This document shows, piece after piece, positions 2,745-20,259 of a stretch of 32,000 nucleotides of DNA. The notes beneath the pieces were generated by a model. The model worked only from the letters and a program-made list of their open reading frames with translations. It ran no database searches and had not been told where the DNA came from. The position numbers were made by a program, and so were the translations under genes. The DNA is from Trichodesmium erythraeum IMS101 (lineage in GTDB: Bacteria > Cyanobacteriota > Cyanobacteriia > Cyanobacteriales > Microcoleaceae), in NCBI RefSeq assembly GCF_000014265.1, contig NC_008312.1, forward strand, positions 6,720,001 through 6,752,000, written 5' to 3'. Every line of letters starts with the position of its first letter. Positions within the stretch are counted from its first letter, which is position 1.

Positions 2745-2937
2745 AACTATATCAAACGGAAAATCTAGAAGCAGTTATTGGTTCTGCTTATTGAGAAAAG
2801 GAAGAAGGGACTTTAACAACTTTGGATAAATTATTAGAAGTTTCAGTTGATATGTTGACTGTAATTTTAATAGGTTATCAATTTACAGGAGTTTATAATA
2901 ATTGGATGATTACACCTAGAGGTTATTTAGGGTTAGA
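2745..2937 (+). pseudogene. decayed copy of the 3' end of cobJ (precorrin-3B C17-methyltransferase tail)
   Basis: By-eye alignment to 10334-10528 shows only scattered substitutions across the last ~120 bp. The translation AVIGSAY*EKEEGTLTTLDKLLEVSVDMLTVILIGYQFTGVYNNWMITPRGYLG matches the CobJ tail VAVVRSAYRENEEATLTTLDKLLEVSVDMLTVILIGNQSTGIYNNWMITPRGYLG. A CGA>TGA stop interrupts it and no upstream gene body remains. The track ORF 2822-3061 is this remnant read from a TTG. Confidence 0.8.
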
Positions 2938-3029
2938 AATAGATGAGCAGGTCGGGAAAACAAAATTGAATGGATGGAAGCATAATTTACCTTTCAGTAG
3001 AAGGCGTCCTTGTGATAGAAACTATTGCT

Positions 3030-5207
3030 TTACTGTTTTTTTATTGATTCTAATAAGTTGAGTGCTAATTCTATATGCCCATGTCGGTCCAGGTTATTCA
3101 CAAGGGCGTCAATTTCTCTATTGTAGCCTGATTCTGCAATCTCAGAATAATATTTTTCTACAAATGTGCTTAAGTCTGTATCCTGGAGATAATTTTCGAC
3201 TATTTTACAAAAATTACTTAAATGATTTCGTGTTTTCAAGTCTTCTCTGAGAGCGGCTATTGTATCTTCAAATTCGCTATATCGCCCTTGGTTAGAGTAA
3301 AGACCAGCTAAGTTGATGAAGCTTGAAGCAAGAGAGGGATGATTTGCTGGTAGGGCAATTTTATTAATTTCTATCGCTTGTTTGTACAAAGCTTCGGCTT
3401 CGCTGTATCGCCCTTGGTTAAAGTAAAGAGTAGCTAAGTTATCGAGACTCGAAGCAAGAGAGGGATGATTTGCTGGTAGGGCAATTTTATTAATTTCTAT
3501 CGCTTGTTTGTACAAAGCTTCGGCTTCGCTGTATCGCCCTTGGTTAAAGTAAAGAGCAGCTAAGTTATCGAGACTCGAAGCAAGAGAGGGATGATTTTCT
3601 GGTAAGGCGATTTTATTAATTTCTATCGCTTGTTTATACAAAGCTTCGGCTTCGCTGTATCGCCCTTGGTTAAAGTAAAGAGCAGCTAAGTTCTCGAGAC
3701 TCGAAGCAAGAGAGGGATGATTTGCTGGTAGGGCAATTTTATTAATTTCTATCGCTTGTTTGTACAAAGCTTCGGCTTCGCTATATCGCCCTTGGTTAGA
3801 GTAAAGACCAGCTAAGTTGTTGAGATTGAAAGCAAGAGAGGGATGATTTGCTGATAGGGCAATTTTATTAATTTCTATCGCTTGTTTGTACAAAGGTTCG
3901 GCTTCGCTATATCGCCCTTGGTTAAAGTAAAGACTAGCTAAGTTGTTGAGACTCGAAGCAAGAAAGGGATGATTTGCTGGTAAGGCGATTTTATTAATTT
4001 CTATCGCTTGTTTGTACAAAGGTTCGGCTTCACTATATCGCTCTTGGTTAGAGTAAAGACCAGCTAAGTTGTTGAGACTCGAAGCACGAGAGGGATGATT
4101 TACTGGTAGGGCGATTTTATTAATTTCTATCGCTTGTTTGTACAAAGGTTCGGCTTCACTATATCGCCCTTGAGAACGATAAAGAATAGCCAGGTTGTTA
4201 AGATTAGAAGCAATTTCTGGATGTGTTGCTCCTAACAGTTGCTTGTTCATCTTTAATGCTTCGAGATACAAGGGTTCGGCTTCGCTATATCGCCCTTGGG
4301 AATAGTAGAGACCAGCCAGGTTGTTAAGATTAGAAGCAATTTCTGGATGTGTTGCTCCTAACAGTTGCTTGTTCATCTTTAATGCTTCGAGATACAAGGG
4401 TTCGGCTTCGCTATATCGCCCTTGGGAATAGTAGAGACCAGCCAGGTTATTAAGATTAGAGGCCACATCCGGATGTGTTGACCCTAACAGTTGCTTGTTC
4501 ATCTTTAATGCTTCGAGATACAAGGGTTCGGCTTTGCTATATTGCCCTTGATTTTCATAACAAATGCCTAAATTACCTAAGGCTTTACTTTCTGATTGCC
4601 GATCTTTTATTTCGCGAGTAATCGCCAATTGTTGTTGAAAATAATTAATGGAGCGTTCAAAATGCCCTAGTGACTGATAAACAATTCCTAAATTACCTAA
4701 GGCTTTACTTTCTGATTGCCTATCTTTTGTTTCTTGAGTAATCGCCAATTGTTGTTGAAAAGAATCAATGGAGCGTTCAAAATGCCCTAGTGACTGATAA
4801 ACAATTCCTAAATTACCTAAGGCTTTACTTTCTGATTGCCGATCTTTTATTTCGCGAGTAATCACCAATTGTTGTTGAAAATAATTAATGGAGCGTTCAA
4901 AATGCCCTAGTGACTGATAAACAATTCCTAAATTACCTAATGCTTGACTTTCAGATTGCCGATCTTTTATGTCACGAGTAATCGGCAATTGTTGTTGAAA
5001 AGAATCAATGGAGCGTTCAAAATGCCCTAGTGACTGATAAACAATTCCTAAATTACCTAATGCTTGACTTTCAGATTGCCGATCTTTTATTTCGCGAGCA
5101 ATAATCAATTGTTGCTGAAAATATTCAATGGAGCGTTCAAATTTTCCTAGCGAATGGTATGCAATCCCTATTTTTCTATATAGTTCTAATGTTAGTGGTT
5201 CTGGCAT
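3030..5207 (-). CDS. tetratricopeptide-repeat (TPR) protein: 5 x 40-aa repeats, about 10 x 42-aa repeats, then a ~85-aa non-repeat C-terminal domain
   Basis: ATG-started 725-aa ORF. The repeat units LGNLGIVYQSLGHFERSI..FQQQL.ITR.IKDRQSES.A and NLAGLY..QGRYSEAEPLY.QA.EINK..L...HP..A..LN are classic TPR_12 / kinesin-light-chain-type. The start lies 7 nt after the CHAT stop, which suggests coupled expression. Confidence 0.9.
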   Translation of the reverse strand: MPEPLTLELYRKIGIAYHSLGKFERSIEYFQQQLIIAREIKDRQSESQALGNLGIVYQSLGHFERSIDSFQQQLPITRDIKDRQSESQALGNLGIVYQSLGHFERSINYFQQQLVITREIKDRQSESKALGNLGIVYQSLGHFERSIDSFQQQLAITQETKDRQSESKALGNLGIVYQSLGHFERSINYFQQQLAITREIKDRQSESKALGNLGICYENQGQYSKAEPLYLEALKMNKQLLGSTHPDVASNLNNLAGLYYSQGRYSEAEPLYLEALKMNKQLLGATHPEIASNLNNLAGLYYSQGRYSEAEPLYLEALKMNKQLLGATHPEIASNLNNLAILYRSQGRYSEAEPLYKQAIEINKIALPVNHPSRASSLNNLAGLYSNQERYSEAEPLYKQAIEINKIALPANHPFLASSLNNLASLYFNQGRYSEAEPLYKQAIEINKIALSANHPSLAFNLNNLAGLYSNQGRYSEAEALYKQAIEINKIALPANHPSLASSLENLAALYFNQGRYSEAEALYKQAIEINKIALPENHPSLASSLDNLAALYFNQGRYSEAEALYKQAIEINKIALPANHPSLASSLDNLATLYFNQGRYSEAEALYKQAIEINKIALPANHPSLASSFINLAGLYSNQGRYSEFEDTIAALREDLKTRNHLSNFCKIVENYLQDTDLSTFVEKYYSEIAESGYNREIDALVNNLDRHGHIELALNLLESIKKQ
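3276..4560. repeat. intragenic tandem array, period 126 bp, about 10 units
   Basis: The motif gct(a/g)tatcgccc recurs at 3276, 3402, 3528, 3654, 3780, 3906, 4032, 4158, 4284, 4410 and 4536. Adjacent units 3339-3464 and 3465-3590 differ by a single base. Confidence 0.9.
4561..5170. repeat. intragenic tandem array, period 120 bp, 5 units
   Basis: acaattcctaaattacctaa recurs at 4681, 4801, 4921 and 5041. The units are near-identical and encode the 40-aa TPR repeats. Confidence 0.9.
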
Positions 5208-5214
5208 TTTAATT

Positions 5215-6819
5215 TTATCTACTGTATAACTCTGATTGTAATAACTTTTTTTGATTAAACTCTAAATGTTCTATTTTTTCTATTTCTTCTAAAATTTTTG
5301 GTTCTTTGCACTTTTTATAGAGCTTATAGAGTCCAGCTTTTAATTCTGATAATGTTGCTAAAGTATCAACTACAGTATCAACTACTAAGATTTCTGGCGA
5401 ATTAATGTTATTAATGTTTTGATTGGGAATTGCTCTCAAACTTAATTTTATTTGATCCTCTATAATTGGTGGATGATTGCTCGGAATTGGCTTATTTACA
5501 CTCTTATTTATACTTTTTATCGTAGATTGAGTAACAAACAATTGGCCCCCCTCATTATCCTGCCAGCGCAAATAAAGCACGGGACGATACCACTGATTTC
5601 CATCCACACCCATGGCTGCCCGCCCCTGACTAACAGCCACCGCTAGAGAATTTTTCTGTCCCAGAGAACGATAAAATTGTTCAGCAAACTTAGTTGCACT
5701 GTCTACCCTCACAGAATATTGCATGGCCACCACCGCCGGCACCCGATGAGCAATCAGACTTTGAGCAGCACCATTAAACACAGACTCTCCCACTATAGCC
5801 ATTCCCGACTGACAAGCACTCAACACCACCAAAACCACACCCTCTGTTTTACCATTACCATCCCTCAAACCAGACTGTTGCAGCAGAGTACCCAATTCTT
5901 GACCACTAATATAATCAGCATCTCCATCCTTATCCTCAAAAACCAGATATCCCTGAGGCAAAGGCAACTCTGTCTCACACTTACGGCATCGTCGAGATTT
6001 TGTCCCCCCATTCATCGCCCCACATTCAGAATTAGGACAACGTTGGCCAAACAAACCATGTCCATCAAAATGGATCACATGGGGTCCCTTATCCCCCCGA
6101 TGTTCTGTCAGATAATTTCTTAACTCATCCAAAGTAGGTTCTTCCAGTTGTGCCAAAAAAATATCCCCTCGATCTCTAGCTTTTTCCAACCCCTTAAGAA
6201 CAGCCTTTTGTTCCTTGCGGGACAGAGGTTGGAGATTAAGTTTATGATCAGATGCGGCGGAGGATACCAATAAAACATTCAGTTTTTCCGCTGTGGGTAA
6301 GTTAGGAGGAACAGATGGATAGGCAATATACCGAGAAAACTCAACTTGGTAATGACAGAGAAAGCCTTGGTTGTGCAAAAGTTCCCAAGGATAATCTGCC
6401 AGTCGCGTTTTCTGGGCCACATCCCCGTCAAGTTTCAACCGCACCAACAGTTTAGTAGATTTAGATTCAGCAAAACTAATAGACTTCTGCAATAAATTTT
6501 CTACCTTACTACCTGGAGGAAACAGAGAAGAGTAAAGAGCTTTACCGATATTGATCAAATAATTAGGATGGAAATTTGAGCGATCGCTTCCTAAAATACC
6601 CGCTTGGCTCATCCATTCCTGTTCCTGTGCAGAAAAAAACTCAGGACGGAAAGTAGAAACCTCCAAACTTCTAATCACAGTAATGCGCCAGTCCCATTCA
6701 GCATCCAAAAAAGGCAACAATGACTCATTCCTTCCCTGTCCCGCAGGAGAGTCAGTCACAATAACCTCAAATTTAGTAGAGTCATCAAGGGGTGACAGGT
6801 ATAACTCCAAAAGTTCCAT
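5215..6819 (-). CDS. CHAT-domain (caspase-like) cysteine protease with a zinc-ribbon insert
   Basis: Caspase/CHAT catalytic dyad motifs are present: VIHFDGHG (His259 in track numbering, nt 6058-6060) and VLSACQSG (Cys341, nt 5812-5814). The PWELL motif in the N-terminal region is typical of CHAT proteins. CPNSEC-x11-CRKC lies between the His and the Cys. The track start at 6834 is a TTG inside a heptamer repeat, so I prefer the ATG at 6819 (MELLELYLSP...). Confidence 0.9.
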   Translation of the reverse strand: MELLELYLSPLDDSTKFEVIVTDSPAGQGRNESLLPFLDAEWDWRITVIRSLEVSTFRPEFFSAQEQEWMSQAGILGSDRSNFHPNYLINIGKALYSSLFPPGSKVENLLQKSISFAESKSTKLLVRLKLDGDVAQKTRLADYPWELLHNQGFLCHYQVEFSRYIAYPSVPPNLPTAEKLNVLLVSSAASDHKLNLQPLSRKEQKAVLKGLEKARDRGDIFLAQLEEPTLDELRNYLTEHRGDKGPHVIHFDGHGLFGQRCPNSECGAMNGGTKSRRCRKCETELPLPQGYLVFEDKDGDADYISGQELGTLLQQSGLRDGNGKTEGVVLVVLSACQSGMAIVGESVFNGAAQSLIAHRVPAVVAMQYSVRVDSATKFAEQFYRSLGQKNSLAVAVSQGRAAMGVDGNQWYRPVLYLRWQDNEGGQLFVTQSTIKSINKSVNKPIPSNHPPIIEDQIKLSLRAIPNQNINNINSPEILVVDTVVDTLATLSELKAGLYKLYKKCKEPKILEEIEKIEHLEFNQKKLLQSELYSR

Positions 6820-6823
6820 AGCT

Positions 6824-6865
6824 CTAAAAGTCAAAAGTCAAAAGTTAAAAGTTAAAAGTTAAAAG
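6824..6865. repeat. STRR-like heptamer array, 6 units (CTAAAAG, TCAAAAG x2, TTAAAAG x3)
   Basis: Read directly from the sequence. The array sits immediately upstream of, and partly overlapping, the 5' end of the CHAT ORF. Confidence 0.85.
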
Positions 6866-6972
6866 TGAGATTTTAATAGATCAAAACTTTTACCCCCTCA
6901 GTAATTTCGCGAAATTATTTCAGAAATGGAGATAAGTGGTGTAGCCTAAGTTAATAAAATTGGTATTATTAT

Positions 6973-7329
6973 TTAGAAATTTGGTTCCGGGCCTTTCATC
7001 CCAGCATCACTCACTTTTTCCAAAAATTCTGGCCAATTTTCCGGATACTTCTTTTGATACATTTTTAAAAGCTGTTCCCTATTCAAAAGTGGAGATAATT
7101 TCACCTTAACCTTCTGGACATCATCCCGACTGCTACCTCCTCCCATTTCTAGAACATATATTTTAATTCCAGCTTTTCCTGATTTTTTGACTGTAACTTG
7201 TAACTCTAATTCCACAGAATCAACTGCAAAAATAGGAATATCTGTTTCCCCATCTGGTGCTTGAGTTAGCAATTCCTCTTTTACTTGTTGAATTAACTCT
7301 GCTAAACCAATCGAACTTTCATCATTCAT
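6973..7329 (-). CDS. trypco2-like small protein (protease-co-occurring conflict-system domain)
   Basis: ATG-started 118-aa ORF. The pattern LAELIQQVKEEL...IPIFAVDSVELELQVTVKKSGKAGIKIYVLEMGGGSSRDDVQKVKVKLSPL matches what I remember of trypco2 family proteins: an N-terminal helix, then F.V..VELEL.V.V, a G-rich turn, and .V.V.L.P. It lies directly upstream of a CHAT protease on the same strand. Confidence 0.6.
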   Translation of the reverse strand: MNDESSIGLAELIQQVKEELLTQAPDGETDIPIFAVDSVELELQVTVKKSGKAGIKIYVLEMGGGSSRDDVQKVKVKLSPLLNREQLLKMYQKKYPENWPEFLEKVSDAGMKGPEPNF

Positions 7330-7532
7330 ACTTTTTAACCTTATCCTTTTTTTTGTTTTAAACCAAAATAAATATTATAATTCAACACAAAATTAAATGT
7401 CAAAGAATTTGATAAATATTTACTTCTTAAACCCCTGTAGAATTGACCTCTAATTTATGGAAAAAATGCCTACATTATTCATGTTAAACTAATTTAATAC
7501 AGGTAGTTATTCTATAGTCTGGGAAAAAAATT

Positions 7533-8279
7533 ATGAATAATATAGCAACAATACTAGAAACAAAAATGGCTTTGAGAGAAGCTTTAAAAACCTATGATGG
7601 AGACGTGAAAAACCAGAAAGTTAAGGCAAAAATTGAGCAACTTTCTCAACTTAACCCCATAGAAAAACCGACCCATAGCTCCCTACTAGAATCTCATTGG
7701 TTATTAATTAGTGCCCCTTCTTTTCCTCAAGGGCAAAAACTTTCTAATGGCAAATATGCTTATACCTTGGGTAAATTAGCATTTAATATGTTTCAACCTA
7801 CCAATTTAAAATTAGTTATTGACTCTGTTAAACAACCTGTTGTGTTGTTAGGAGAAAAATCAAAACGTAGCCATGATATTGTAGTTGAATTTAGTATTAT
7901 TGATGAATTATTCCCACCATTAAAAGGTATTGTTCGTAATTTAGCTGTTTGTTATCCAGTGGATAATAAAAACTTACAAGCTGAATTTACAGGAGGTATT
8001 TTTGCTCCACAAAAAGGTGAAAATTTATCAACTTGGAAAGATATATTTGTTCAAGCAAAAGCATCAAAAAAAGGATTAAAAGAACAATTAATGTCTGTAT
8101 TTTTCAAGTTGATGTTTGGGTTAACACCTCCCCAAGGTATGAATACAGAAACAGGAGAAATTTCTTTTACAATGAAGCGATCGCCTAAAGGTCGTTTAGA
8201 AATACTTTTTTTAGATGAGGAGCTTCGCATCACAAAGGGAAAAAAGGAAAATATTTTAATCTTTGAACGTATGGTATAG
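7533..8279 (+). CDS. PAP/fibrillin-family (plastid-lipid-associated-like) protein
   Basis: ATG-started 248-aa ORF. The N-terminal motif K..L.EAL.........KI.QLSQLNP..KP.....LL.S.W.L resembles the fibrillin signature (E.LNP...P ... G.W.L.Y). Confidence 0.55.
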   Translation: MNNIATILETKMALREALKTYDGDVKNQKVKAKIEQLSQLNPIEKPTHSSLLESHWLLISAPSFPQGQKLSNGKYAYTLGKLAFNMFQPTNLKLVIDSVKQPVVLLGEKSKRSHDIVVEFSIIDELFPPLKGIVRNLAVCYPVDNKNLQAEFTGGIFAPQKGENLSTWKDIFVQAKASKKGLKEQLMSVFFKLMFGLTPPQGMNTETGEISFTMKRSPKGRLEILFLDEELRITKGKKENILIFERMV

Positions 8280-8461
8280 CTTTTACTTAATTCATCATTA
8301 TTAACTGACCATTAGCACTCACTCATCTGTTAAATTTTAGTAGGTTTCCGGTTTCAGGTTCTAGACAAAAATAAAAATGATTGAAGTAAAAAGTTGTCAA
8401 AATTTAACAGGCAAAAATTATCACTTTGGTCCTAAAATATTATCAATTTGTTGACTTTTAA

Positions 8462-8496
8462 ACTTAACACCTAACATCTGACACCTAACACCTTAA
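8462..8496. repeat. degenerate heptamer array (ACTTAAC ACCTAAC ATCTGAC ACCTAAC ACCTTAA)
   Basis: Read directly from the sequence. It lies about 40 nt upstream of the cbiG-cobJ start. Confidence 0.7.
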
Positions 8497-8534
8497 ATTA
8501 TAAATACAACTTCATATACCCAAACAGCTAAAAA

Positions 8535-10526
8535 ATGAATGTAATTGGCCAAGAATTTCAACCAATAGCAGCGATCGCGACTACCCCTACAGGAGCAAAA
8601 TTATTACAACCTATTTGCCAAAAATTGGAAGGTACTCTCTGGATACCAGAGTCTTGCCGAAAAACCGTAAACCTCTCTCTTAACACTCAGGTTTACACCG
8701 ACTCTCTGAAAAACCATCTGGCAAATATTTGGCTAGACTATAATGCTATTATTTTTTCTCTTGCTAGCGGTGCAGTAATACGTTTAATTTCTCCACTCTT
8801 GCAAAATAAATATCACGATCCAGCAGTAGTTATCGTCGATCAAACAGGTAAATTTGTCATTAGTTTATGTAGCGGACATCAAGGAGGCGCCGATCAACTA
8901 ACCAATATCCTCGCTCCCCTCCTCAATGCTACCCCAGTTATTACAGGCGCATCTCATAATTTAGAATTACCTGGTATTGATATTTTGGGCAAACCTTTTG
9001 GTTGGCAACGTGGGGAAGGTGACTGGAATACAGTTAGTGGAATTATTGCCAGAGAAGAAACTGTACAAGTGCTTCAGGAAGTAGGTTCCATGTTGTGGCA
9101 AAAACATCTACCACACCAACATCCATTTTACTTTGGGTTTCCCAAAATGGGTGAAACATCTCCAACTCCTAAAGCCAGAATTTGGATTAATTTTTATCAA
9201 CATCAGTTTTCGCCAGATTCAGATTTACCAAAGGTCCAGTGGCACCCGCGAGTTTTATGGGTAGGAGTTGGTTGCGAAAGAGGAACTTCTAAAAAGTTAA
9301 TTGCCACTGGTATTGAAAAAATATTGTCCACTTATAATTTAGCAGTAAAAGCGATCGCTGGCATCGCCACTATTAATATTAAAGCTGATGAAATAGGACT
9401 AATAGAATTTTGTCAGGAAAAAAACTTACCTTTGCAGACCTTCTCAGCAGAATTATTAAACTGTGTTGAAGTACCTAATCCTTCTGATATTGTGGCCGCA
9501 GAAGTAGGAACTACTAGTGTGTCTGAAGCAGCAGCAATTTTAGCGGCAAAGCAACAGCAAGACACAGATTTTAAACAGAAATATAACGTGTTTGAACAGG
9601 AAGAAATAAGAGACAATAAACAGGAATCAAAATTACCTTTACCTGGAGAATTTCAACAGGAAAAACAACAATTAAAATTATCCACAAATTTATTAGTTAG
9701 TAAAGAAATATTCCGCCTAGAAGGAGAACCAGGAGCAATGACTATTGCCATTGCTTTATCGGAAAAAGAATATACAGGCAGAACCGGAAAATTATTATTA
9801 ATTGGTACAGGTCCTGGTCAACTAGACCAGATAACATCCGCAGCTAAAACTGCCATTAGTTATGCAGATGTTGTAATTGGTTATTCTCTTTATATTGACT
9901 TAATTCAACCCTTATTTAATCCCGGACAAATAGTCGAAAAAATGCCAATAACTCAAGAAAGACAACGAGCAGAAAGAGCAATTGAATTAGCAAACTTTGG
10001 TTTAACTGTGGCGGTAGTTTCTTCTGGAGATTCTGGAATTTATGGTATGGCAGGGTTAGTTTTAGAACAGCTTCGAGCTTCTTATTGGGATGGCAAAAAT
10101 CCGGCAGTAGAAATATTTCCGGGAATTAGTGCTTTACAATCTGCTGCTTCAAGAGTTGGTGTGCCTTTAATGCACGATTTTTGTGCTATTAGCTTGAGCG
10201 ATTTATTAACACCTTGGGAAGTAATAGAAAAACGTTTAATTGCTGCTGCAATGGCAGATTTTGTAGTGGCAATTTATAATCCTAAATCTCAGAAGAGAAC
10301 CGAACAATTAGTTAAAGCGGTCAACATTTTTTTAAAATATCGTCAACCAAAAAATCCAGTAGCAGTTGTTCGCTCTGCTTATCGAGAAAATGAAGAAGCA
10401 ACTTTAACAACTTTGGATAAATTATTAGAAGTTTCAGTTGATATGTTGACTGTAATTTTAATAGGTAATCAATCTACAGGTATTTATAATAATTGGATGA
10501 TTACACCCAGGGGTTATTTAGGGTAA
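8535..10526 (+). CDS. cobJ: bifunctional cobalt-precorrin-5A hydrolase (CbiG) / precorrin-3B C17-methyltransferase (CobJ/CbiH)
   Basis: 663-aa ORF. The C-terminal half carries tetrapyrrole-methylase motifs (LLLIGTGPG, VVSSGDSGIYGM, FPGISALQSAASRVG). The N-terminal half has CbiG-like motifs (FSLASGAVIRLI, SGHQGGA, VGVGCERG). A low-complexity Q/E/K-rich linker joins the two halves. Confidence 0.9.
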   Translation: MNVIGQEFQPIAAIATTPTGAKLLQPICQKLEGTLWIPESCRKTVNLSLNTQVYTDSLKNHLANIWLDYNAIIFSLASGAVIRLISPLLQNKYHDPAVVIVDQTGKFVISLCSGHQGGADQLTNILAPLLNATPVITGASHNLELPGIDILGKPFGWQRGEGDWNTVSGIIAREETVQVLQEVGSMLWQKHLPHQHPFYFGFPKMGETSPTPKARIWINFYQHQFSPDSDLPKVQWHPRVLWVGVGCERGTSKKLIATGIEKILSTYNLAVKAIAGIATINIKADEIGLIEFCQEKNLPLQTFSAELLNCVEVPNPSDIVAAEVGTTSVSEAAAILAAKQQQDTDFKQKYNVFEQEEIRDNKQESKLPLPGEFQQEKQQLKLSTNLLVSKEIFRLEGEPGAMTIAIALSEKEYTGRTGKLLLIGTGPGQLDQITSAAKTAISYADVVIGYSLYIDLIQPLFNPGQIVEKMPITQERQRAERAIELANFGLTVAVVSSGDSGIYGMAGLVLEQLRASYWDGKNPAVEIFPGISALQSAASRVGVPLMHDFCAISLSDLLTPWEVIEKRLIAAAMADFVVAIYNPKSQKRTEQLVKAVNIFLKYRQPKNPVAVVRSAYRENEEATLTTLDKLLEVSVDMLTVILIGNQSTGIYNNWMITPRGYLG

Positions 10527-10527
10527 G

Positions 10528-10561
10528 TAGGGAGTGGGGTAGTGCATAAAATGACTCCCTA
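10528..10561 (+). terminator. stem-loop immediately after the cobJ stop
   Basis: There is an 8-bp perfect stem (TAGGGAGT 10528-10535 / ACTCCCTA 10554-10561) with an 18-nt loop. No clear T-run follows, so its role as a terminator is tentative. Confidence 0.3.
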
Positions 10562-10927
10562 TTCATGATATAATTATTAATATTAAACTCAAATATTCAA
10601 AAAATATTTTGCATTTCACAAGTTTAATATTAGGAATAATTAATTATGGATATCTAGATAGTATTATTAGCATTAGATGGAAAACTTGAATTACTCCCAC
10701 CAAAAAAAAATTAAGCACTAAGCAAAATTAAAAAATCAAACTAACTATTAGCGATCGCTAAGTTTATATCAGAGAAAGTTTAATAATTTTAGAAAAAGTT
10801 CAGCAACCCCTAAACTTAAGTCATTGGTGTCAACATATTGAATATTTAGCACCAGGCTCAAATAAACCTTCTCTTTAAGAAATTAGTGAAATAGTAAAAA
10901 AAGTCGACGGGAACGGAAGTTTGATCA

Positions 10928-11335
10928 ATGAGAGTTTTTCTAGATATAAATATTTTGATTTCGGCTTGGTTGTGGGGTGGTGTTCCTGGTCAAATTATAT
11001 TCATTACTAAAAATCAGCAAATTACTGCGTAAGCTTTCTCAACCAATTTGATAGGAGTTAGAAACTACTTGAAAAATAGCAAAACTTCAGGCAAGAATAG
11101 AGTTATGAGAATAGTGGAGCCTTTCATTTCCAGAACCCAAAAGTAATCACAATTTTGTCTAACAACTGTTGTCAATTTTTTTCTACTCTGTGACCTAGAT
11201 GATACTGTGATGTTGATCACTGCCCATGGATCTCAAGTTAATGTTCTTCTTGCTCGCGATTTAAATTTACTAAGTTTGTCAGAATTTTGAAGCATTCCGA
11301 TCTTGAAACCCATAAATTTGATCACGGCTTATTTT
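10928..11335 (+). pseudogene. degraded PIN-domain toxin gene
   Basis: The N-terminal piece MRVFLDINILISAWLWGGVPGQIIFITKNQQITA* has the PIN signature VFLD.N.LISA. After stops and frameshifts, a C-terminal piece DLDDTVMLITAHGSQVNVLLARDLNLLSLSEF*SIPILKP resembles the D..D...L..A......LVT.D.DLL.L..F.GI.I..P end of PIN proteins. Confidence 0.55.
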
Positions 11336-12389: not shown

Positions 12390-13492
12390 AATTATTATGA
12401 TCCTTAGAGTTGTATTTCCCCGGACTGAGGCAAAGAAAGCCGATTTCTAGGATAAATGGTTATTTTACTAAGCTAGCCTGCATAAGTCCTATTTATTTAA
12501 CTACTCGTTAAATATTTTTGATTAATCTAACATCAATTATAGCAGAAATAAAAATAATCTACATACTTGCCCCTTTTGTCAATCTTTTATTTTACTTATT
12601 TCTCCTAATAATTATACTTATGCTTTGTTTTTTTGTCAATGCAAAGCCCCTAGAGGATATTATATTACAAACCAATACAATATTTAGCATCTGCTTCATC
12701 CCATTTTTATTAAATAAACATAAAAACTAGAAACAGGAATTCAGTTTCATAAACATTCTATTTTATAAATAGTATCATTTTTTCTATGGATACAGCTACT
12801 ATAAAATATATGAATTGATTTTTTTTTAGGTCTATTCATAATAATCTATAAGTGGAAATAATAGTAAACAATATGATTTTATATTAAATATTATATACAT
12901 AGTTTTATCTTTTGTAAGGTAATTATAAATCTACTATATCTCTACTAAAATCACCATTCTCATAATAGTAATTAGTCTGTATCTTATTAGCACCATTGAT
13001 ATTAAATGTAAGTTCAGCTTCTTTTGCTTTGCTTACAATATTTAGAAAAGACGATAAAGCTATATCTGATAAAATCCTAATAATAATAATCACTACAAAT
13101 CACTCAATACAAGTAAATAAATAGTTATTATTTTGCTTGTTTAAACCTTGTAAAATCACCTAATTGTTCTTCTAAATTGAATAAAAATGAAAACTTTTAT
13201 GTGATATCTCTATTAACATTCATATTTTTACCTTTGATATAAATATGATTTTTTATCAAGTTTGACCTTCATCTCTTCTATTGATATTCTTGTCTGCAAT
13301 TTTATAAATTATGCAGTTATTTAGGTAAATATTTCCTGAGTAATATTGCGCAAATAGCCGTTAGCAATCAACTATAAACCATGAATTATTAATATTATTT
13401 CCATTTGAATAGTTCAGTTAAACCTCATCCCAGAGTTTGAGTAATAAGATAGATAAAGCTCAAACCCTACTACAAACAAAAACTTTTTTATT

Positions 13493-13617
13493 GCTTCCCC
13501 ATCCACAGTAACAACTTTCACCTTGACAGATATCCCATACTCTGAAACCTTACTATTGAGTGTGGAACAAGAAGAAAACCCATATCAAGAACCTGGAAAA
13601 ATTGTTGTTCTAAATTA
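13493..13617 (+). repeat. copy 1 of a 125-bp dispersed direct repeat (carries an ORF tail ending in TAA)
   Basis: Aligns with 13884-14008. I count 6 substitutions, 5 of them in the first ~25 nt. It reads ASPSTVTTFTLTDIPYSETLLLSVEQEENPYQEPGKIVVLN* with no start codon upstream. Confidence 0.85.
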
Positions 13618-13883
13618 ATAGAAACAGGACTTACGCAAATTCACTGAGGCCCAACCTCTATAGGGACAACAGCCATTTGACCTCACAATTAATACCTGCC
13701 CGTGCCGAAGTCCTGAGAAATATATTATTTTCTATTATTTCACTAAACAAGTGCATAAATTTTCCTCCTCAATAAAAAAGAATTAATAGAAACTCGAAAA
13801 ACCTATATATAGGAGTTATCCAAATATTATCTTTTTTCAACAGAATAGTTTTCTTGACCAATATTATTACTTTGATAGCGATC

Positions 13884-14008
13884 GCTTCCCCATCAATAGC
13901 AACCACGTTCACCTTGACAGATATCCCATACTCTGAAACCTTACTATTGAGTGTGGAACAAGAAGAAAACCAATATCAAGAACCTGGAAAAATTGTTGTT
14001 CTAAATTA
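13884..14008 (+). repeat. copy 2 of the 125-bp direct repeat
   Basis: Reads ASPSIATTFTLTDIPYSETLLLSVEQEENQYQEPGKIVVLN*. A HIP1 site lies at its 5' edge. Confidence 0.85.
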
Positions 14009-14150
14009 GAAGTATAATATTAAATATTGTCAATTTTCAACAATTTTTTTTAATCTTCGTTTTTAATATTTGTGCCTTATGATTAAAATCAAGTTATTGC
14101 AAGGAGAAAACTATTCAATGATTTCCATAAAATAGTTATCAAGACTTATT

Positions 14151-14888
14151 ATGGGAGCTCCAACTATTGCCTCAATAACGACAATGTCAGCTTTAAGTGC
14201 CAAAGCAGGAACATTTACTTACTCCGACTCAACATTTAATAACGAAGACTGAGAACTAACCAGAAAAAACACTGGTTACTTAAGTGGTTCAGCAACTGTA
14301 ACCCAAGTCAATTCAGGAGATATTGATAGTAAATTTCGTCGTATAGTCAACTCTGTTAACTCATCTTCCCCTTCTCAAAAATCTACTGTTTGGGGAGTCC
14401 ATCTTTAGAATAGCGATACCCATAGCCCACAAACTCAAGGAGCAATTTTTTCTATTAATTATTCTGAAAACTCTATTATCTATTCCGTTGTCTGGTTTTG
14501 GCCAAAGACAAAGTGTAGGTTTAGCTTTGAAACAAAACGGCAATTTTTATCTAGGGGTGGGCAATAACTATTTTATTAAGCCAGAGACAAGCTGGACTAA
14601 AAAATATTTAACAAATTTGACAGAAAGCAATTTTCAGTTAATAGGCGGCGGGGTTAACCAGCATCCAGACTTTTCTGAACAAGACGTAGACATTCAATGA
14701 TGATTTTCCCGTGGCAATACCCCAGGTTTTAATGCTAATGGTTATTCCATATTTGGTGGTATAGACAACTAGTCAGTGGTAGTCACAATAGAAAAACAAG
14801 AAACAGCACCAGTTCCCGAACCAACAAGCACAGTGGGAATTGTGGTTTTAGTAGCGATCGCTTTATTCAGACACAAACGTCATAGTTA
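14151..14888 (+). pseudogene. frameshifted and stop-interrupted PEP-CTERM protein gene
   Basis: Starts MGAPTIASITTMSALSAKAGTFTYSDSTFNNED*. It continues in other frames (track ORF 14488-14700, then FSRGNTPGFNANGYSIFGGIDN*). It ends with an intact sorting signal, APVPEPTSTVGIVVLVAIALFRHKRHS*. Confidence 0.6.
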
Positions 14889-15475
14889 GAAATTCTAGCC
14901 CACCCATCTCACCAACACCTGAGTCAGATAAAATTCACTATATAATTTTATCTTCTCGGATACAAGAATAGTCCTGTTATTAATTCAAACAGGACTTACC
15001 TACGGGCACTACATGAGCGTGAGTGCGAACGCCTAAAAGCCTATACATATCGCGGACCTAGGTAAACTTGTACAACTACAAAACAAATGCCGTAAACTAC
15101 TAAGTGCATCCTGAAATTTTCTAGCCTGTGTCATCACTAGGAAGCTCCTGGAGAAGGAAGTTACAATAACTAAAGGTATAGCTATTTTAGGATCGACAGA
15201 GGTTGCTATAGTAGGCAAACATATATTTAAAAAACCCAGTCATCTTATTCCTTTGAGAAAAGCTGCAAAGAAAAACAATAAAAGTATGGAAATTATTGCC
15301 TAGAAATTCATATCAGAATTTACCCACACACATGAAGTTATATAACATTTGTAGGGGTTAACAGCCATTAACCCCAAGCATCATATAGAATAGTTATCCG
15401 TAACTCCTGATATCATAGTGCTATTTATAAAAGCCAATTAATTAACTGATAATCATTTCACGAATATACACCAAA

Positions 15476-18116: not shown

Positions 18117-18773
18117 ATGAGTCAATATATGTATGTACCGTGGTCTAAGGTAGAACAAACCCTTTCGCAAGTGGAATTGCCACCAGAAAAACTCTCTAAC
18201 TACGATCTAGTATTGCGCTGCCAACAAGGTAGTCGCCCAGATCGTACAACTTTTGCAGAACTTCTACATCGATACCAACTCCATGTAGATAAAATCTTAT
18301 ATCACTTGGCCCCCGAATGGCAAGATAGATCTGATTTGGCCCAAGAGGTTTGGATCCGTGTATATCGTAATATTAGAGGCCTACAAGAACCAGCAAAATT
18401 TAAGAGCTGGCTCAGTCGGATAACAACTAATCTATTTTATGACGAGTTACGGAAACGAAAACGAATTACCCCACCTCTATCGTTGGACGCTCCTTTGACT
18501 TTAGATGATGGTATAGTAGATTGGGAAATTGCTACAGATAAACCAGGACCAGAAGAACAATTAACCACACAAGAATTTTACGATCATCTTAGAGATGCGA
18601 TCGCTCAATTACCTGAAGTATTCAGAGTAACTATTATCTTGAGAGAAATTCAGGGTTTATCATACGAAGAAATTTCAGAAATTACAGGAGTTTCTCTAGG
18701 AACTGTTAAATCAAGAATTGCTAGAGCTAGACAAAGATTACAATTGCAGCTCCAAAAATATTTAGATATTTGA
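18117..18773 (+). CDS. ECF-type (group 4) sigma-70 family RNA polymerase sigma factor
   Basis: 218-aa ORF. Region 2 reads DLAQEVWIRVYRNIRGL....FKSWLSRITTNLFYDELRKRKR. Region 4 reads ILREIQGLSYEEISEITGVSLGTVKSRIARARQRL. It may be a SigG-like orthologue, but I cannot confirm that. Confidence 0.85.
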   Translation: MSQYMYVPWSKVEQTLSQVELPPEKLSNYDLVLRCQQGSRPDRTTFAELLHRYQLHVDKILYHLAPEWQDRSDLAQEVWIRVYRNIRGLQEPAKFKSWLSRITTNLFYDELRKRKRITPPLSLDAPLTLDDGIVDWEIATDKPGPEEQLTTQEFYDHLRDAIAQLPEVFRVTIILREIQGLSYEEISEITGVSLGTVKSRIARARQRLQLQLQKYLDI

Positions 18774-19029
18774 TGATTTTAATAAGCTACATTAAGTTCT
18801 TACATTCTCTTGTAAATTATTCAAAAATCTATCCAAAAAAACTAACAATATTAAAAACTAACAATATTTCAATATATACCTAAAGTTTAGCTAAATTTAA
18901 GTAAAAAAAACTAATTGCCAAACAAATTTATTTTTTGATAAATAAATCTTAACTCCATAATTTACAAGTATGAGTAAAAAATTGAATTAAGATGAGTTTT
19001 GTCATCATCTTCAAAGTAGGAAAAAAACG

Positions 19030-19482
19030 ATGAAACAAGAAAAAATTGAACTAATAAGTGCATACATTGATGATGAGGTGACACCATCACAACGCAGAGA
19101 AGTAGAAGCTTTATTAGAGACAGATCCAGTTGCTAAACATCTTTATGAAAGACTACTACAACTACATTCTGAATTTCAAAGAATACCAATAGATATAACA
19201 CTAGAACCTGTCGACAAAACCATCGAACAAGTATTTAATAAAATTGACCGTAGATCGAAACGCAATTTTGTGTTAGTTGGTAGTGCAGTTGTTGGTCTAT
19301 GCATAGCAGTTATATCAGGATTTATTTCTACTACTCGCTCTCCTGTAACTAAGTTGGCGGAAGTATCTGATTCTGAAACTTTACAAATTGCCTTAAATGA
19401 ACCCGTTATAGAAACACTTAACCCAGATAATGTTATTTTAACTGTAAATGAACCATTGCTACAAATTCCCCAAGCATATTAA
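19030..19482 (+). CDS. membrane-anchored anti-sigma factor (non-zinc variant)
   Basis: 150-aa ORF. The N-terminus LISAYIDDEVTPSQRREVEALLETDP resembles anti-sigma N-terminal domains. It has a single TM helix (FVLVGSAVVGLCIAVISGFI) and lies downstream of the ECF sigma gene. Confidence 0.65.
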   Translation: MKQEKIELISAYIDDEVTPSQRREVEALLETDPVAKHLYERLLQLHSEFQRIPIDITLEPVDKTIEQVFNKIDRRSKRNFVLVGSAVVGLCIAVISGFISTTRSPVTKLAEVSDSETLQIALNEPVIETLNPDNVILTVNEPLLQIPQAY

Positions 19483-19764: not shown

Positions 19765-19870
19765 ACTAAAAAAAAGTTAAAAAATAACTTGTTTCAATAT
19801 TTATTCTAGCTGTTCATACTAAAAAAAAGTTAAAAAATAACTTGTTTCAATATTTATTCTAGCTGTTCAT
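19765..19870. repeat. perfect tandem duplication, 2 x 53 bp
   Basis: The unit actaaaaaaaagttaaaaaataacttgtttcaatatttattctagctgttcat occurs at 19765 and 19818. Each copy contains the hairpin AAGTTA-aaaaa-TAACTT. Confidence 0.9.
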
Positions 19871-20259
19871 ACTTGATAACTAGTAAAGGTTGCGTTTCTT
19901 CGGTAATTATTTTGAATATATTCAACTATACTACTCATAATCTAGTGGAAAATTTATATTTTTTACGATTTGATCACGGTCTATTTGTTTTTCGCAGATG
20001 TCTAACAATATTTTCTGGGAGCTAAAAGTCCTAAGTTTATCTCTACACTCTCCTGAAAGTTATCCTATTGAATTATGATGCTCCTAACTGAAATCTTTTT
20101 TGGGGCATAGTTTTTCTCCCACTTAATACAAAAAATGCTTGATATAATCATCAGGCATTGCAGTGGAGTTAATAATCCTCAACATTTAAAAACTGGTTAA
20201 CTAAGTGGTATTAGCATACCTTATAACAACAGGAATTAAGGTATAATTTTACTATAGCT

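Follow-up and report, generated by a model that had tools for sequence, protein, structure and literature searches.

A Trypco2, CHAT protease and TPR cassette in Trichodesmium erythraeum IMS101: a candidate Pepco-type cell-suicide module with a separately encoded, NTPase-less sensor

We analyzed a stretch of 32,000 nucleotides (nt) of the Trichodesmium erythraeum IMS101 genome (contig NC_008312.1, positions 6,720,001 to 6,752,000; hereafter, the window), which carries a cassette of three genes for a small Trypco2 protein, a CHAT-domain protease and a TPR-repeat protein. Our combined findings suggest, with a probability that we put at about 60%, that this cassette is a Pepco (Trypco2)-protease cell-suicide module coupled to an unusual, separately encoded sensor that lacks a nucleoside triphosphatase (NTPase). 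An earlier reading of the same DNA from its letters and open reading frames (ORFs), the sequence-only reading, had framed the cassette as a conflict or cell-suicide system, and this framing holds. The novelty lies in the architecture of the sensor, that is, in a helical-hairpin tail on the CHAT protease and a separate TPR-only gene without an NTPase. The effector principle and the theme of Trypco2, a caspase and a variable sensor have already been described.

The cassette consists of three co-oriented minus-strand ORFs (6973-7329, 5215-6819 and 3030-5207). The ATG of the TPR gene (5207) lies, as the sequence-only reading had described, 7 nt past the CHAT stop codon (5215-5217); it is in another frame. 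No terminator-like sites were seen between the three genes, and a promoter-like site lies about 45 nt upstream of the Trypco2 ATG, in a sequence that is conserved in the Trichodesmium contigs L014, L015, L019 and L020. The features at this locus are as follows, in window coordinates:

7374..7403, minus strand: promoter-like site, TTGACA, an 18-nt spacer and TATAAT, 12/12 consensus matches (a consensus match only)
6973..7329, minus strand: Trypco2/Pepco gene, Tery_4364, 118 amino acids (aa), Pfam PF19631
6976..7032, minus strand: predicted removable C-terminal tail of Trypco2, P100-F118, 19 aa, ~2 kDa, as suggested by alignment to SsPepco
6820..6972, minus strand: Trypco2-CHAT spacer, 153 nt, holding a 7-nt tandem repeat
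5536..6819, minus strand: CHAT protease module, Tery_4363, aa 1-428 counted from the ATG, Pfam CHAT, with catalytic H254 and C336
5215..5535, minus strand: CHAT C-terminal tail, aa 429-534, modeled by AlphaFold2 (AF2) as a disordered linker and a helical hairpin
3030..5207, minus strand: TPR-only protein, 725 aa, predicted sensor or scaffold, Pfam TPR_10/TPR_12
2752..2936, plus strand: decayed copy of the last 185 nt of cbiG-cobJ, 90% identical to 10343-10527

The 118-aa product of Tery_4364 matches the Trypco2 family PF19631 along the whole model (E=1.2e-19; 70.8 bits, with a cutoff of 24.2; model positions 1-78 of 78), so that its earlier assignment to Trypco2 passed a check that had been set beforehand. 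The characterized SsPepco protein of Streptomyces subrutilus also matches PF19631 (E=5e-18, 65.6 bits), and since both matches are strong we place the two proteins in the same family. The names Trypco1 and Trypco2 were given to genes found together with those of trypsin-like peptidases in vWA-MoxR systems (Kaur et al., eLife 2020, PMC7159879), and both were renamed Pepco in the study of SsPepco (Evans et al., bioRxiv 10.1101/2025.11.14.688446), which renders outdated the statement of the sequence-only reading that it knew of no experimental characterization. According to that preprint, SsPepco constitutively forms denaturation-resistant 9-10-mer beta-barrels, from which a trypsin-like protease fused to Avs4 strips a C-terminal tail of ~2 kDa after Ile97. 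SsPepco is necessary for toxicity and, once truncated, sufficient: the protein ending exactly at Ile97 is enough to kill E. coli, with a requirement for the amphipathic N-terminal helix. The supplement of the preprint names the particle 'Trypco2 beta-barrel' and supplies its sequence. Searches of the literature for Pepco with a caspase and TPR added nothing beyond this preprint, and a search for Tery_4362-4364 found no paper in the collection searched that names them. Because it is homologous to SsPepco, Tery_4364 is probably both the substrate and the killing effector of the cassette, a latent beta-barrel pore toxin.

The predicted structure of Tery_4364 and its alignment are consistent with such a role. 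An AF2 monomer model has an N-terminal helix (residues 9-20), two strands (34-43 and 71-80) and C-terminal helices (84-112), and this order of N-terminal helix, beta-hairpin and C-terminal extension agrees with the published description of Pepco, at a low predicted local distance difference test score (pLDDT) of 59. The amphipathic N-terminal helix and the alternating hydrophobic and charged residues of the beta-strands are conserved. More than 300 cyanobacterial homologues were found, in filamentous cyanobacteria, at 55-96% identity, and the ratio of nonsynonymous to synonymous substitution rates (dN/dS) of Trypco2 was 0.06-0.25 (0.06 for the window against metagenomic contig L016). In a MAFFT alignment of 121 sequences, P94-A-R-I97|R98 of SsPepco falls in register with P96-E-N-W99|P100 of Tery_4364, where the consensus of the cyanobacterial family is Y-P-E-[RK]-[WLF]. 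From this register, cleavage of Tery_4364 is predicted after W99, leaving a 19-aa tail. K112-G113 is an alternative candidate site in the same alignment, with K112 kept in 119/120 homologues.

Tery_4363, the next gene, matches Pfam CHAT (PF12770, E=1.3e-21), and the TPR gene matches TPR_10 (E=2.5e-153) and TPR_12 (E=7e-138), in agreement with the domains first assigned to them. The catalytic His (HFDGHG) and Cys (SACQSG) of the CHAT module are invariant both in a set of 118 and in a set of 58 homologues; the dyad was thus correctly called intact. The Cys had been given as C341, which is the right residue in TTG-based numbering: its H259/C341 correspond to H254/C336 when counting begins at the ATG. 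A program-made list of ORFs starts the gene at that TTG (6834). The true start is the ATG at 6819, because every homologue begins with MELLELYLSP or MKLLELYLSP; this start, which the sequence-only reading had used, gives a protein of 534 aa. An AF2 model of the protein has a caspase-like core (pLDDT 76, predicted template modeling score 0.72), and its best PDB matches in Foldseek were SAVED-CHAT (8tl0, E=2.6e-8), followed by separase and caspase-9. Sequence searches of the PDB with Trypco2 and with CHAT gave no meaningful match. By its sequence and model, Tery_4363 is a CHAT/caspase-fold (clan CD) peptidase with a His...Cys dyad and predicted catalytic competence. In a census of the CHAT family (a representative search with the 524-column P0125 profile), 10,016 matches were obtained at E<=1e-3 and 288 at E<=1e-30. 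The module ends at a GGQLF motif, at window position 5535, a boundary common to all of our DNA comparisons, and its dN/dS for the window against L016 was 0.14.

Between the catalytic His and Cys lie four invariant Cys residues (C261, C266, C278 and C281; CxxxxC...CxxC), which are kept in all 58 and 118 homologues. They belong to an insert at window positions 6001-6078 (CHAT aa 248-273 from the ATG, reaching aa 281) that looks zinc-ribbon-like in sequence.

The spacer upstream of the CHAT ATG is filled by a 7-nt tandem repeat (TAAAAGT on the plus strand, 6 copies, 6825-6866), which creates the spurious TTG start. The gap from the Trypco2 stop to the CHAT start is 153 nt in the window and 20-60 nt in most other genera; this spacer and the 3' end of Trypco2 vary among Trichodesmium lineages. 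An apparent deletion of the Trypco2 3' end in L015 was ruled out as a scaffold gap of Ns.

We sought to place the cassette among related loci by surveying 80 species-representative genome loci with Trypco2, of which 72 have a downstream ORF. In 69 of these 72 cyanobacterial loci the next gene begins with this CHAT module, and such near-obligate pairing fits an effector and its activating protease. In all 67 CHAT homologues compared, the module is N-terminal and the sensors or adaptors are C-terminal. Counted as Pfam matches beyond the GGQLF boundary, the C-terminal extensions were EAD9 (19/67), NB-ARC (15/67), EAD1 (7/67), TPR-family repeats (about 10/67), CHASE2 (5/67), NACHT (5/67) and bDLD3 (2/67), and a wider protein search also found fusions to FGE, GUN4 and VMAP. 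By these sequence comparisons, the C-terminus of CHAT is a swappable slot for sensors and adaptors. The order of CHAT followed by TPR, which had been singled out as unusual, is therefore the rule in this subfamily, in which CHAT-TPR fusions of ~840 aa without an NTPase also lie beside Trypco2 (loci L044 and L068). Since these fusions and the CHASE2 fusions occur, NTPase-free sensors are not rare among these proteases.

The full triad of Trypco2, a CHAT protease with a homologous tail and a TPR-only protein recurs in metagenomic contigs L016-L018 and L102, so that the neighborhood is conserved both as a pair and, in these relatives, as a whole. Their TPR-only proteins contain both repeat-unit types found in the window. 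Identity to the window is 66% for CHAT and 59-60% for the TPR proteins, and ~60-69% for the triad in these two contig sets. Recurrence at this distance, with dN/dS values of 0.06-0.36, argues that the function of the triad is maintained. That CHAT and TPR are one frameshifted fusion gene was ruled out, as the two are separate, with gaps of 7 or 23 nt, in IMS101, strain 21-75, L015, L016-L018 and L102.

Two further arrangements were seen beside these loci. In L016, a second CHAT gene, CHAT-NB-ARC (1234 aa; 7367-11071), lies directly downstream of the triad and has no Trypco2 of its own. No TPR was detected in its protein, which may use the TPR protein or the Trypco2 encoded upstream as well. 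In L027, a 548-aa protein beside Trypco2 (3354-4997) combines the N-terminal 144 aa of a CHAT protein with TPR_10/12 repeats; it holds no protease or NTPase domain and is apparently what remains of a degraded CHAT-NB-ARC-TPR gene.

Within Trichodesmium, the cassette is syntenic beside PAP_fibrillin. Three or more T. erythraeum assemblies and a number of metagenomes contain it, while sister loci have a different sensor. Between PAP_fibrillin and position 5535, contig L020 (Trichodesmium sp. MAG_R02) is 92.7% identical to the window, and metagenomic contig L019, which starts just upstream of Trypco2, matches it up to the same position at 93.5%. Beyond 5535, both carry CHAT-bDLD3. The gene that follows in L019 is annotated as bDLD3-nSTAND-TPR, and the next long ORF in L020 has a Walker A motif and 90% DNA identity to the L019 STAND gene. 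Over the final 269 nt of the sensor gene, L019 again matches the window, at 97%, and the TPR protein shares 82% identity with the C-terminal end of the L019 STAND protein across its last 96 aa. Because the flanks match and the middle differs, the tail and TPR array of the window and the Death-like adaptors and NTPase-TPR of its sisters are alternative inserts at one locus. The caspase, Death-like and AP-ATPase arrangement of the sisters has been described before (Kaur, Iyer, Burroughs and Aravind, eLife 2021, PMC8195603). Short-read assemblies tend to break at the CHAT boundary or in the TPR repeats (L101 at CHAT aa 435; L100 and L015 inside the TPR array), and contigs L008-L013 end shortly after Trypco2. 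These breaks are consistent with heterogeneous populations and collapsed repeats in just that part of the cassette which varies.

The tail that fills the sensor slot in the window consists, in the AF2 model, of a disordered linker of ~55 aa (residues 431-484, pLDDT <50) and two helices (487-504 and 507-533). This conserved helical hairpin spans ~47 aa (ELLxDxLATLSELKAxxYxxY...IEKIE) and occupies the position at which relatives have EAD or Death-like adaptors. The tail had no Pfam match at E<=1, a word-indexed search with it matched only two T. erythraeum-like fragments, and none of the top 150 matches of the CHAT-family census reached into it. Searches for tail homologues found it only in T. 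erythraeum contigs, L016-L018 and L102. Its dN/dS against L016 was 0.36, and 0.23 for the helical part. A local hidden Markov model of the tail matches the C-termini of CHAT proteins and never TPR proteins. Since the TPR protein carries no second copy of the tail, the cassette does not follow the 'EAD principle'.

The TPR protein is built of five 40-aa units (4572-5171), about ten 42-aa TPR_10/12 units (3273-4571) and an 80-aa non-TPR cap at the C-terminus (3030-3272), with no P-loop present. Its gene contains DNA tandem repeats of 120 and 126 nt with 92-93% matches. With the arrays of the L022 and L035 CHAT-NB-ARC-TPR proteins the protein shares 57-61% identity, and its dN/dS against L016 was 0.28. 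Between IMS101 and strain 21-75, its first 266 aa hold 20 differences that recur at the same repeat positions; CHAT holds 14 substitutions in 534 aa between these strains. Such a fast-evolving array is the pattern expected of a sensor surface. The exact 725-aa translation is absent from a collection of 15 billion proteins in which the adjacent IMS101 proteins are present, and the public annotation may use another start or treat the gene differently.

We found no NTPase that could accompany this sensor: no ORF from 1 to 12.5 kb of the window has a Pfam match to one, none was found across the 32 kb, and tblastn with six STAND proteins from sister loci matched only the CHAT module, the TPR arrays and the C-terminal cap, leaving no NTPase remnant. 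Likewise, cas genes, CRISPR arrays, tRNAs and Rfam RNAs are all missing from the 32-kb window. That neither an NTPase nor a CRISPR partner is present, as claimed beforehand for the vicinity of the cassette, thus holds for the whole window.

These observations suggest the following mechanism. A single promoter upstream of Trypco2 would drive all three genes, and Tery_4364 would pre-assemble as a latent oligomeric beta-barrel, as SsPepco does. The TPR protein, with its ~15 near-identical units, would bind a trigger, which may be a phage protein or a stress signal, and would connect to the protease by way of the helical hairpin in which the flexible CHAT tail ends. Clustering or release upon binding of the trigger would then activate CHAT through H254/C336, and CHAT would remove the ~2-kDa C-terminal tail of Tery_4364, as predicted near W99|P100. 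The clipped barrel would permeabilize the membrane and kill the cell, so that the remaining filament or population is protected. We infer barrel pre-assembly, tail removal and pore formation by homology to the one tested system; the contact of tail and TPR, the NTPase-independent activation and the trigger are our own proposals, among which the docking on the hairpin and the binding of a trigger are the weakest steps. Compared with the wiring first proposed for the cassette, Trypco2 as substrate most likely stands, whereas CHAT, then cast as the effector, is more likely the activating protease and Trypco2 the terminal, pore-forming effector. A more specific idea, which we hold only tentatively and consider rather doubtful, is that the tail and the free TPR array fire a caspase-like protease independently of any NTPase: the hairpin, on its linker of 55 aa, would dock on the TPR superhelix, and ligand bound by the fast-evolving repeats would cluster or release several CHAT proteases, in place of the apoptosome-like STAND oligomerizer of the sister Trichodesmium allele.

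The closest characterized relative is SsPepco-SsAvs4 (bioRxiv 10.1101/2025.11.14.688446). In both systems a PF19631 protein of ~117 aa lies directly upstream of the protease on the same strand, has an N-terminal amphipathic helix, a beta-hairpin and a C-terminal extension (predicted at low confidence in the window), and carries a P-x-R-hydrophobic motif, or its counterpart, at the mapped cleavage position; the sensor is on the C-terminal side of the protease. They differ in that the protease is a trypsin-like serine protease there and a CHAT/caspase-fold cysteine protease in the window, in that the window sensor is a separate TPR-only polypeptide without a STAND ATPase, and in that the window Trypco2 has a tail that is predicted to be helical and N at position 98. 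The operons of caspase-bDLD3 and bDLD3-AP-ATPase/STAND-TPR (PMC8195603; L019 and L020) have in common with the window the locus, Trypco2 and CHAT modules that are 92-95% identical, the last 96 aa of the sensor protein, and the logic of an adaptor-tethered protease with a repeat-bearing sensor. The window, in contrast, has neither a Death-like domain nor an NTPase, its adaptor slot holds a linker and helical hairpin that is not duplicated on the partner, and its repeats are TPR_10/12 units rather than the TPR_14/19 units of L019. Trypco2 was itself named in the vWA-MoxR (VMAP) ternary systems (Kaur et al., eLife 2020, PMC7159879), and many Trypco2-CHAT-EAD9/EAD1 loci of our survey precede operons that, judged by their sizes and by a ~350-aa Walker A ORF in each, may be of the MoxR/VMAP type. 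No MoxR, vWA or VMAP gene is present in the window, however, and whereas that study pairs Trypco2 with trypsin and caspases with an alpha/beta-hydrolase, Trypco2 pairs with CHAT in the cyanobacterial clade studied here.

The sequence-only reading had also pointed to Csx29, the TPR-CHAT protease of Craspase. Csx29 and SAVED-CHAT are analogues in that CHAT is regulated by an attached sensing module and cleaves a dedicated partner (predicted for the window), with no NTPase. The relationship to Csx29 is only a distant one, SAVED-CHAT (8tl0) being the best structural match, ahead of separase and caspase-9. The window lacks the cas genes, CRISPR array and cyclic-oligonucleotide sensor of these systems, their substrates (Csx30 and PCaspase) are unrelated to Trypco2, and the TPR of Csx29 is N-terminal in the same polypeptide, whereas the window has separate genes for CHAT and then TPR. 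Membership in type III-E Craspase, in which the TPR-CHAT protein goes with gRAMP/Cas7-11, Csx30/31 and a CRISPR array, was ruled out on these grounds, that is, the absence of cas genes and arrays in 32 kb, the split genes and their order. Neither does the cassette belong to the STAND/Avs (NLR-like) protease systems, as no P-loop STAND NTPase is found in the protease protein or an adjacent gene, nor to the EAD or Death-like adaptor (ternary) systems, as no adaptor is common to the CHAT tail and the TPR protein. The fused CHAT-TPR proteins of ~840 aa (Leptolyngbya ohadii P0209; L044 and L068) resemble the window in having Trypco2 upstream, CHAT N-terminal, TPR C-terminal and no NTPase, but they are single polypeptides with an extra middle domain, repeats of the TPR_1/2/8 type and no helical-hairpin tail.

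Several observations weigh against a functional Pepco-protease suicide module with an NTPase-less sensor. The only tested Pepco works with a trypsin-like Avs4, which is neither CHAT-linked nor NTPase-less, and the triad is absent from the 80 species-representative genome loci. In L016, where a CHAT-NB-ARC gene adjoins the triad, an NTPase may take part. The AF2 model of Tery_4364 is of low confidence and predicts helices in a well conserved C-terminal region, at odds with the unstructured tail described for SsPepco, and the alignment of the two tails is short and could be fortuitous. Beside the predicted scissile bond, Tery_4364 and its closest relative carry N98, a position held by R or K in 102/120 homologues. 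The TPR protein does not duplicate the CHAT tail, dN/dS of the CHAT module is raised at close (within-species) range (0.54-0.67, from few substitutions), and the cassette is surrounded by housekeeping genes, with no defence island.

Some of these points would also be expected of a decaying remnant of a STAND-coupled system (CHAT-adaptor with adaptor-NTPase-TPR, or CHAT-NB-ARC-TPR) that lost its NTPase by recombination, such that the protease can no longer be triggered and the ORFs are drifting or have a residual role. The syntenic sister locus in Trichodesmium does have a STAND NTPase and shares only the ends of the sensor gene with the window, the TPR array is most like those that elsewhere follow NB-ARC, a clearly degraded derivative exists in L027, and a rearrangement scar adjoins the cassette; N98 and the within-species dN/dS of CHAT fit decay as well. 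Nonetheless, all three ORFs are intact with their catalytic residues, the cassette is conserved in the T. erythraeum assemblies and metagenomes, the same architecture and tail recur at ~60-69% identity under dN/dS of 0.06-0.36 in L016-L018 and L102, and other NTPase-less sensors (CHASE2 and fused TPR) are common partners of this CHAT module. We therefore consider decay unlikely. The same biochemistry could alternatively serve physiological programmed cell death rather than phage defence, with the TPR protein sensing an endogenous signal such as Fe or P starvation or oxidative stress and contributing to the collapse of Trichodesmium blooms. The housekeeping chromosomal context without mobile-element or defence neighbors and the synteny beside PAP_fibrillin are in its favor, and caspase-like activity has reportedly been seen during programmed cell death in Trichodesmium by Berman-Frank and colleagues. 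However, sister species carry different sensors in the slot and strains differ in the TPR array, a typical pattern of arms-race loci, Avs-type phage sensors are joined to related modules, and the literature search found no paper on Tery_4362-4364; we regard a purely physiological role as distinctly improbable.

Finally, CHAT might be the terminal effector that degrades cell proteins, with Trypco2 as a small regulator, inhibitor or adaptor and the TPR protein possibly a substrate or inhibitor of CHAT. Evans et al. (bioRxiv 10.1101/2025.11.14.688446) note that an effector-less caspase-like protease still confers defence. Trypco2 was introduced by Kaur et al. (2020) solely as a domain found alongside trypsin-like peptidases, and a 2023 preprint on diversity-generating retroelements (DGR) calls it an effector-associated domain, citing Kaur et al. 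(2020). The helical, well conserved C-terminal region of Tery_4364, unlike the SsPepco tail, would also suit such a role. Against it stand the toxicity of SsPepco, a member of the same Pfam family that is necessary and, when truncated, sufficient for killing, the conservation of the alternating beta-strands and amphipathic N-terminal helix in Tery_4364, and the near-obligate pairing of Trypco2 with CHAT, which fits an effector and its activator. This assignment of roles seems very improbable to us, and we continue to favor a Trypco2 effector activated by CHAT.

Protease-gated death effectors are recognized as a dominant logic of prokaryotic immunity, among which Pepco/Trypco2 is reported to be the most abundant. 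All cases tested so far depend on a STAND ATPase with a serine protease, to which the window cassette, with three genes, a CHAT protease and no ATPase, would be a compact counter-example in a cultured and biogeochemically important host. The STAND-bearing version at the same locus in sister species would be a natural control for the licensing of a caspase-like protease by TPR alone, and also bears on whether CHAT-linked Pepcos use the same tail-clipping switch. If activation in the window is indeed independent of an NTPase, two natural alleles at one locus would allow ATP-driven and ATP-free activation of the same protease-pore effector to be compared. The cassette is also a specific candidate for a system of regulated cell death in filaments of Trichodesmium, and could be among the long-sought executioners of cell death in bloom collapse.

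The cassette had been described as bracketed by a gene-tail duplication. This duplication is real, a direct repeat of 185 nt with 90% identity (2752-2936 and 10343-10527), but it brackets 7.6 kb that comprise TPR, CHAT, Trypco2, PAP_fibrillin and most of cbiG-cobJ, and not the cassette alone. The orphan copy of the cbiG-cobJ 3' end at 2752-2936 still reads ...LEVSVDMLTVILIG...NNWMITPRGYLG and lies 70 nt past the end of cassette homology at 3007. In other Trichodesmium lineages a muconolactone-isomerase gene, not cobJ, lies beside PAP_fibrillin, and the locus has thus been rearranged. The orphan copy is probably a scar of rearrangement and not part of the functional system. Several insertion models for its origin were rejected, as the orientation does not fit; the orientation does fit tandem duplication followed by deletion, which is a candidate origin.

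The divergent neighbor of Trypco2 is Tery_4365 (PAP_fibrillin), and the remaining genes of the window are housekeeping genes (cbiG-cobJ, pyrB, moaE, an ECF sigma/anti-sigma pair, mltG/yceG and ruvX). The sigma/anti-sigma pair lies at 18117-19482, with the ECF-type sigma factor gene ahead of a putative zf-HC2 anti-sigma gene, and is unrelated to the cassette. Between a PEP-CTERM protein gene and pyrB, ~3 kb (12390-15475) contain no ORF of at least 90 aa on either strand, and no Rfam families or tRNA were found in this interval. Two short AT-rich intergenic tandem repeats lie at 2382-2496 and 19765-19873, with units of 58 nt and 53 nt and ~2 copies each, and an A-rich 26-mer related to them recurs at 10702-10727.

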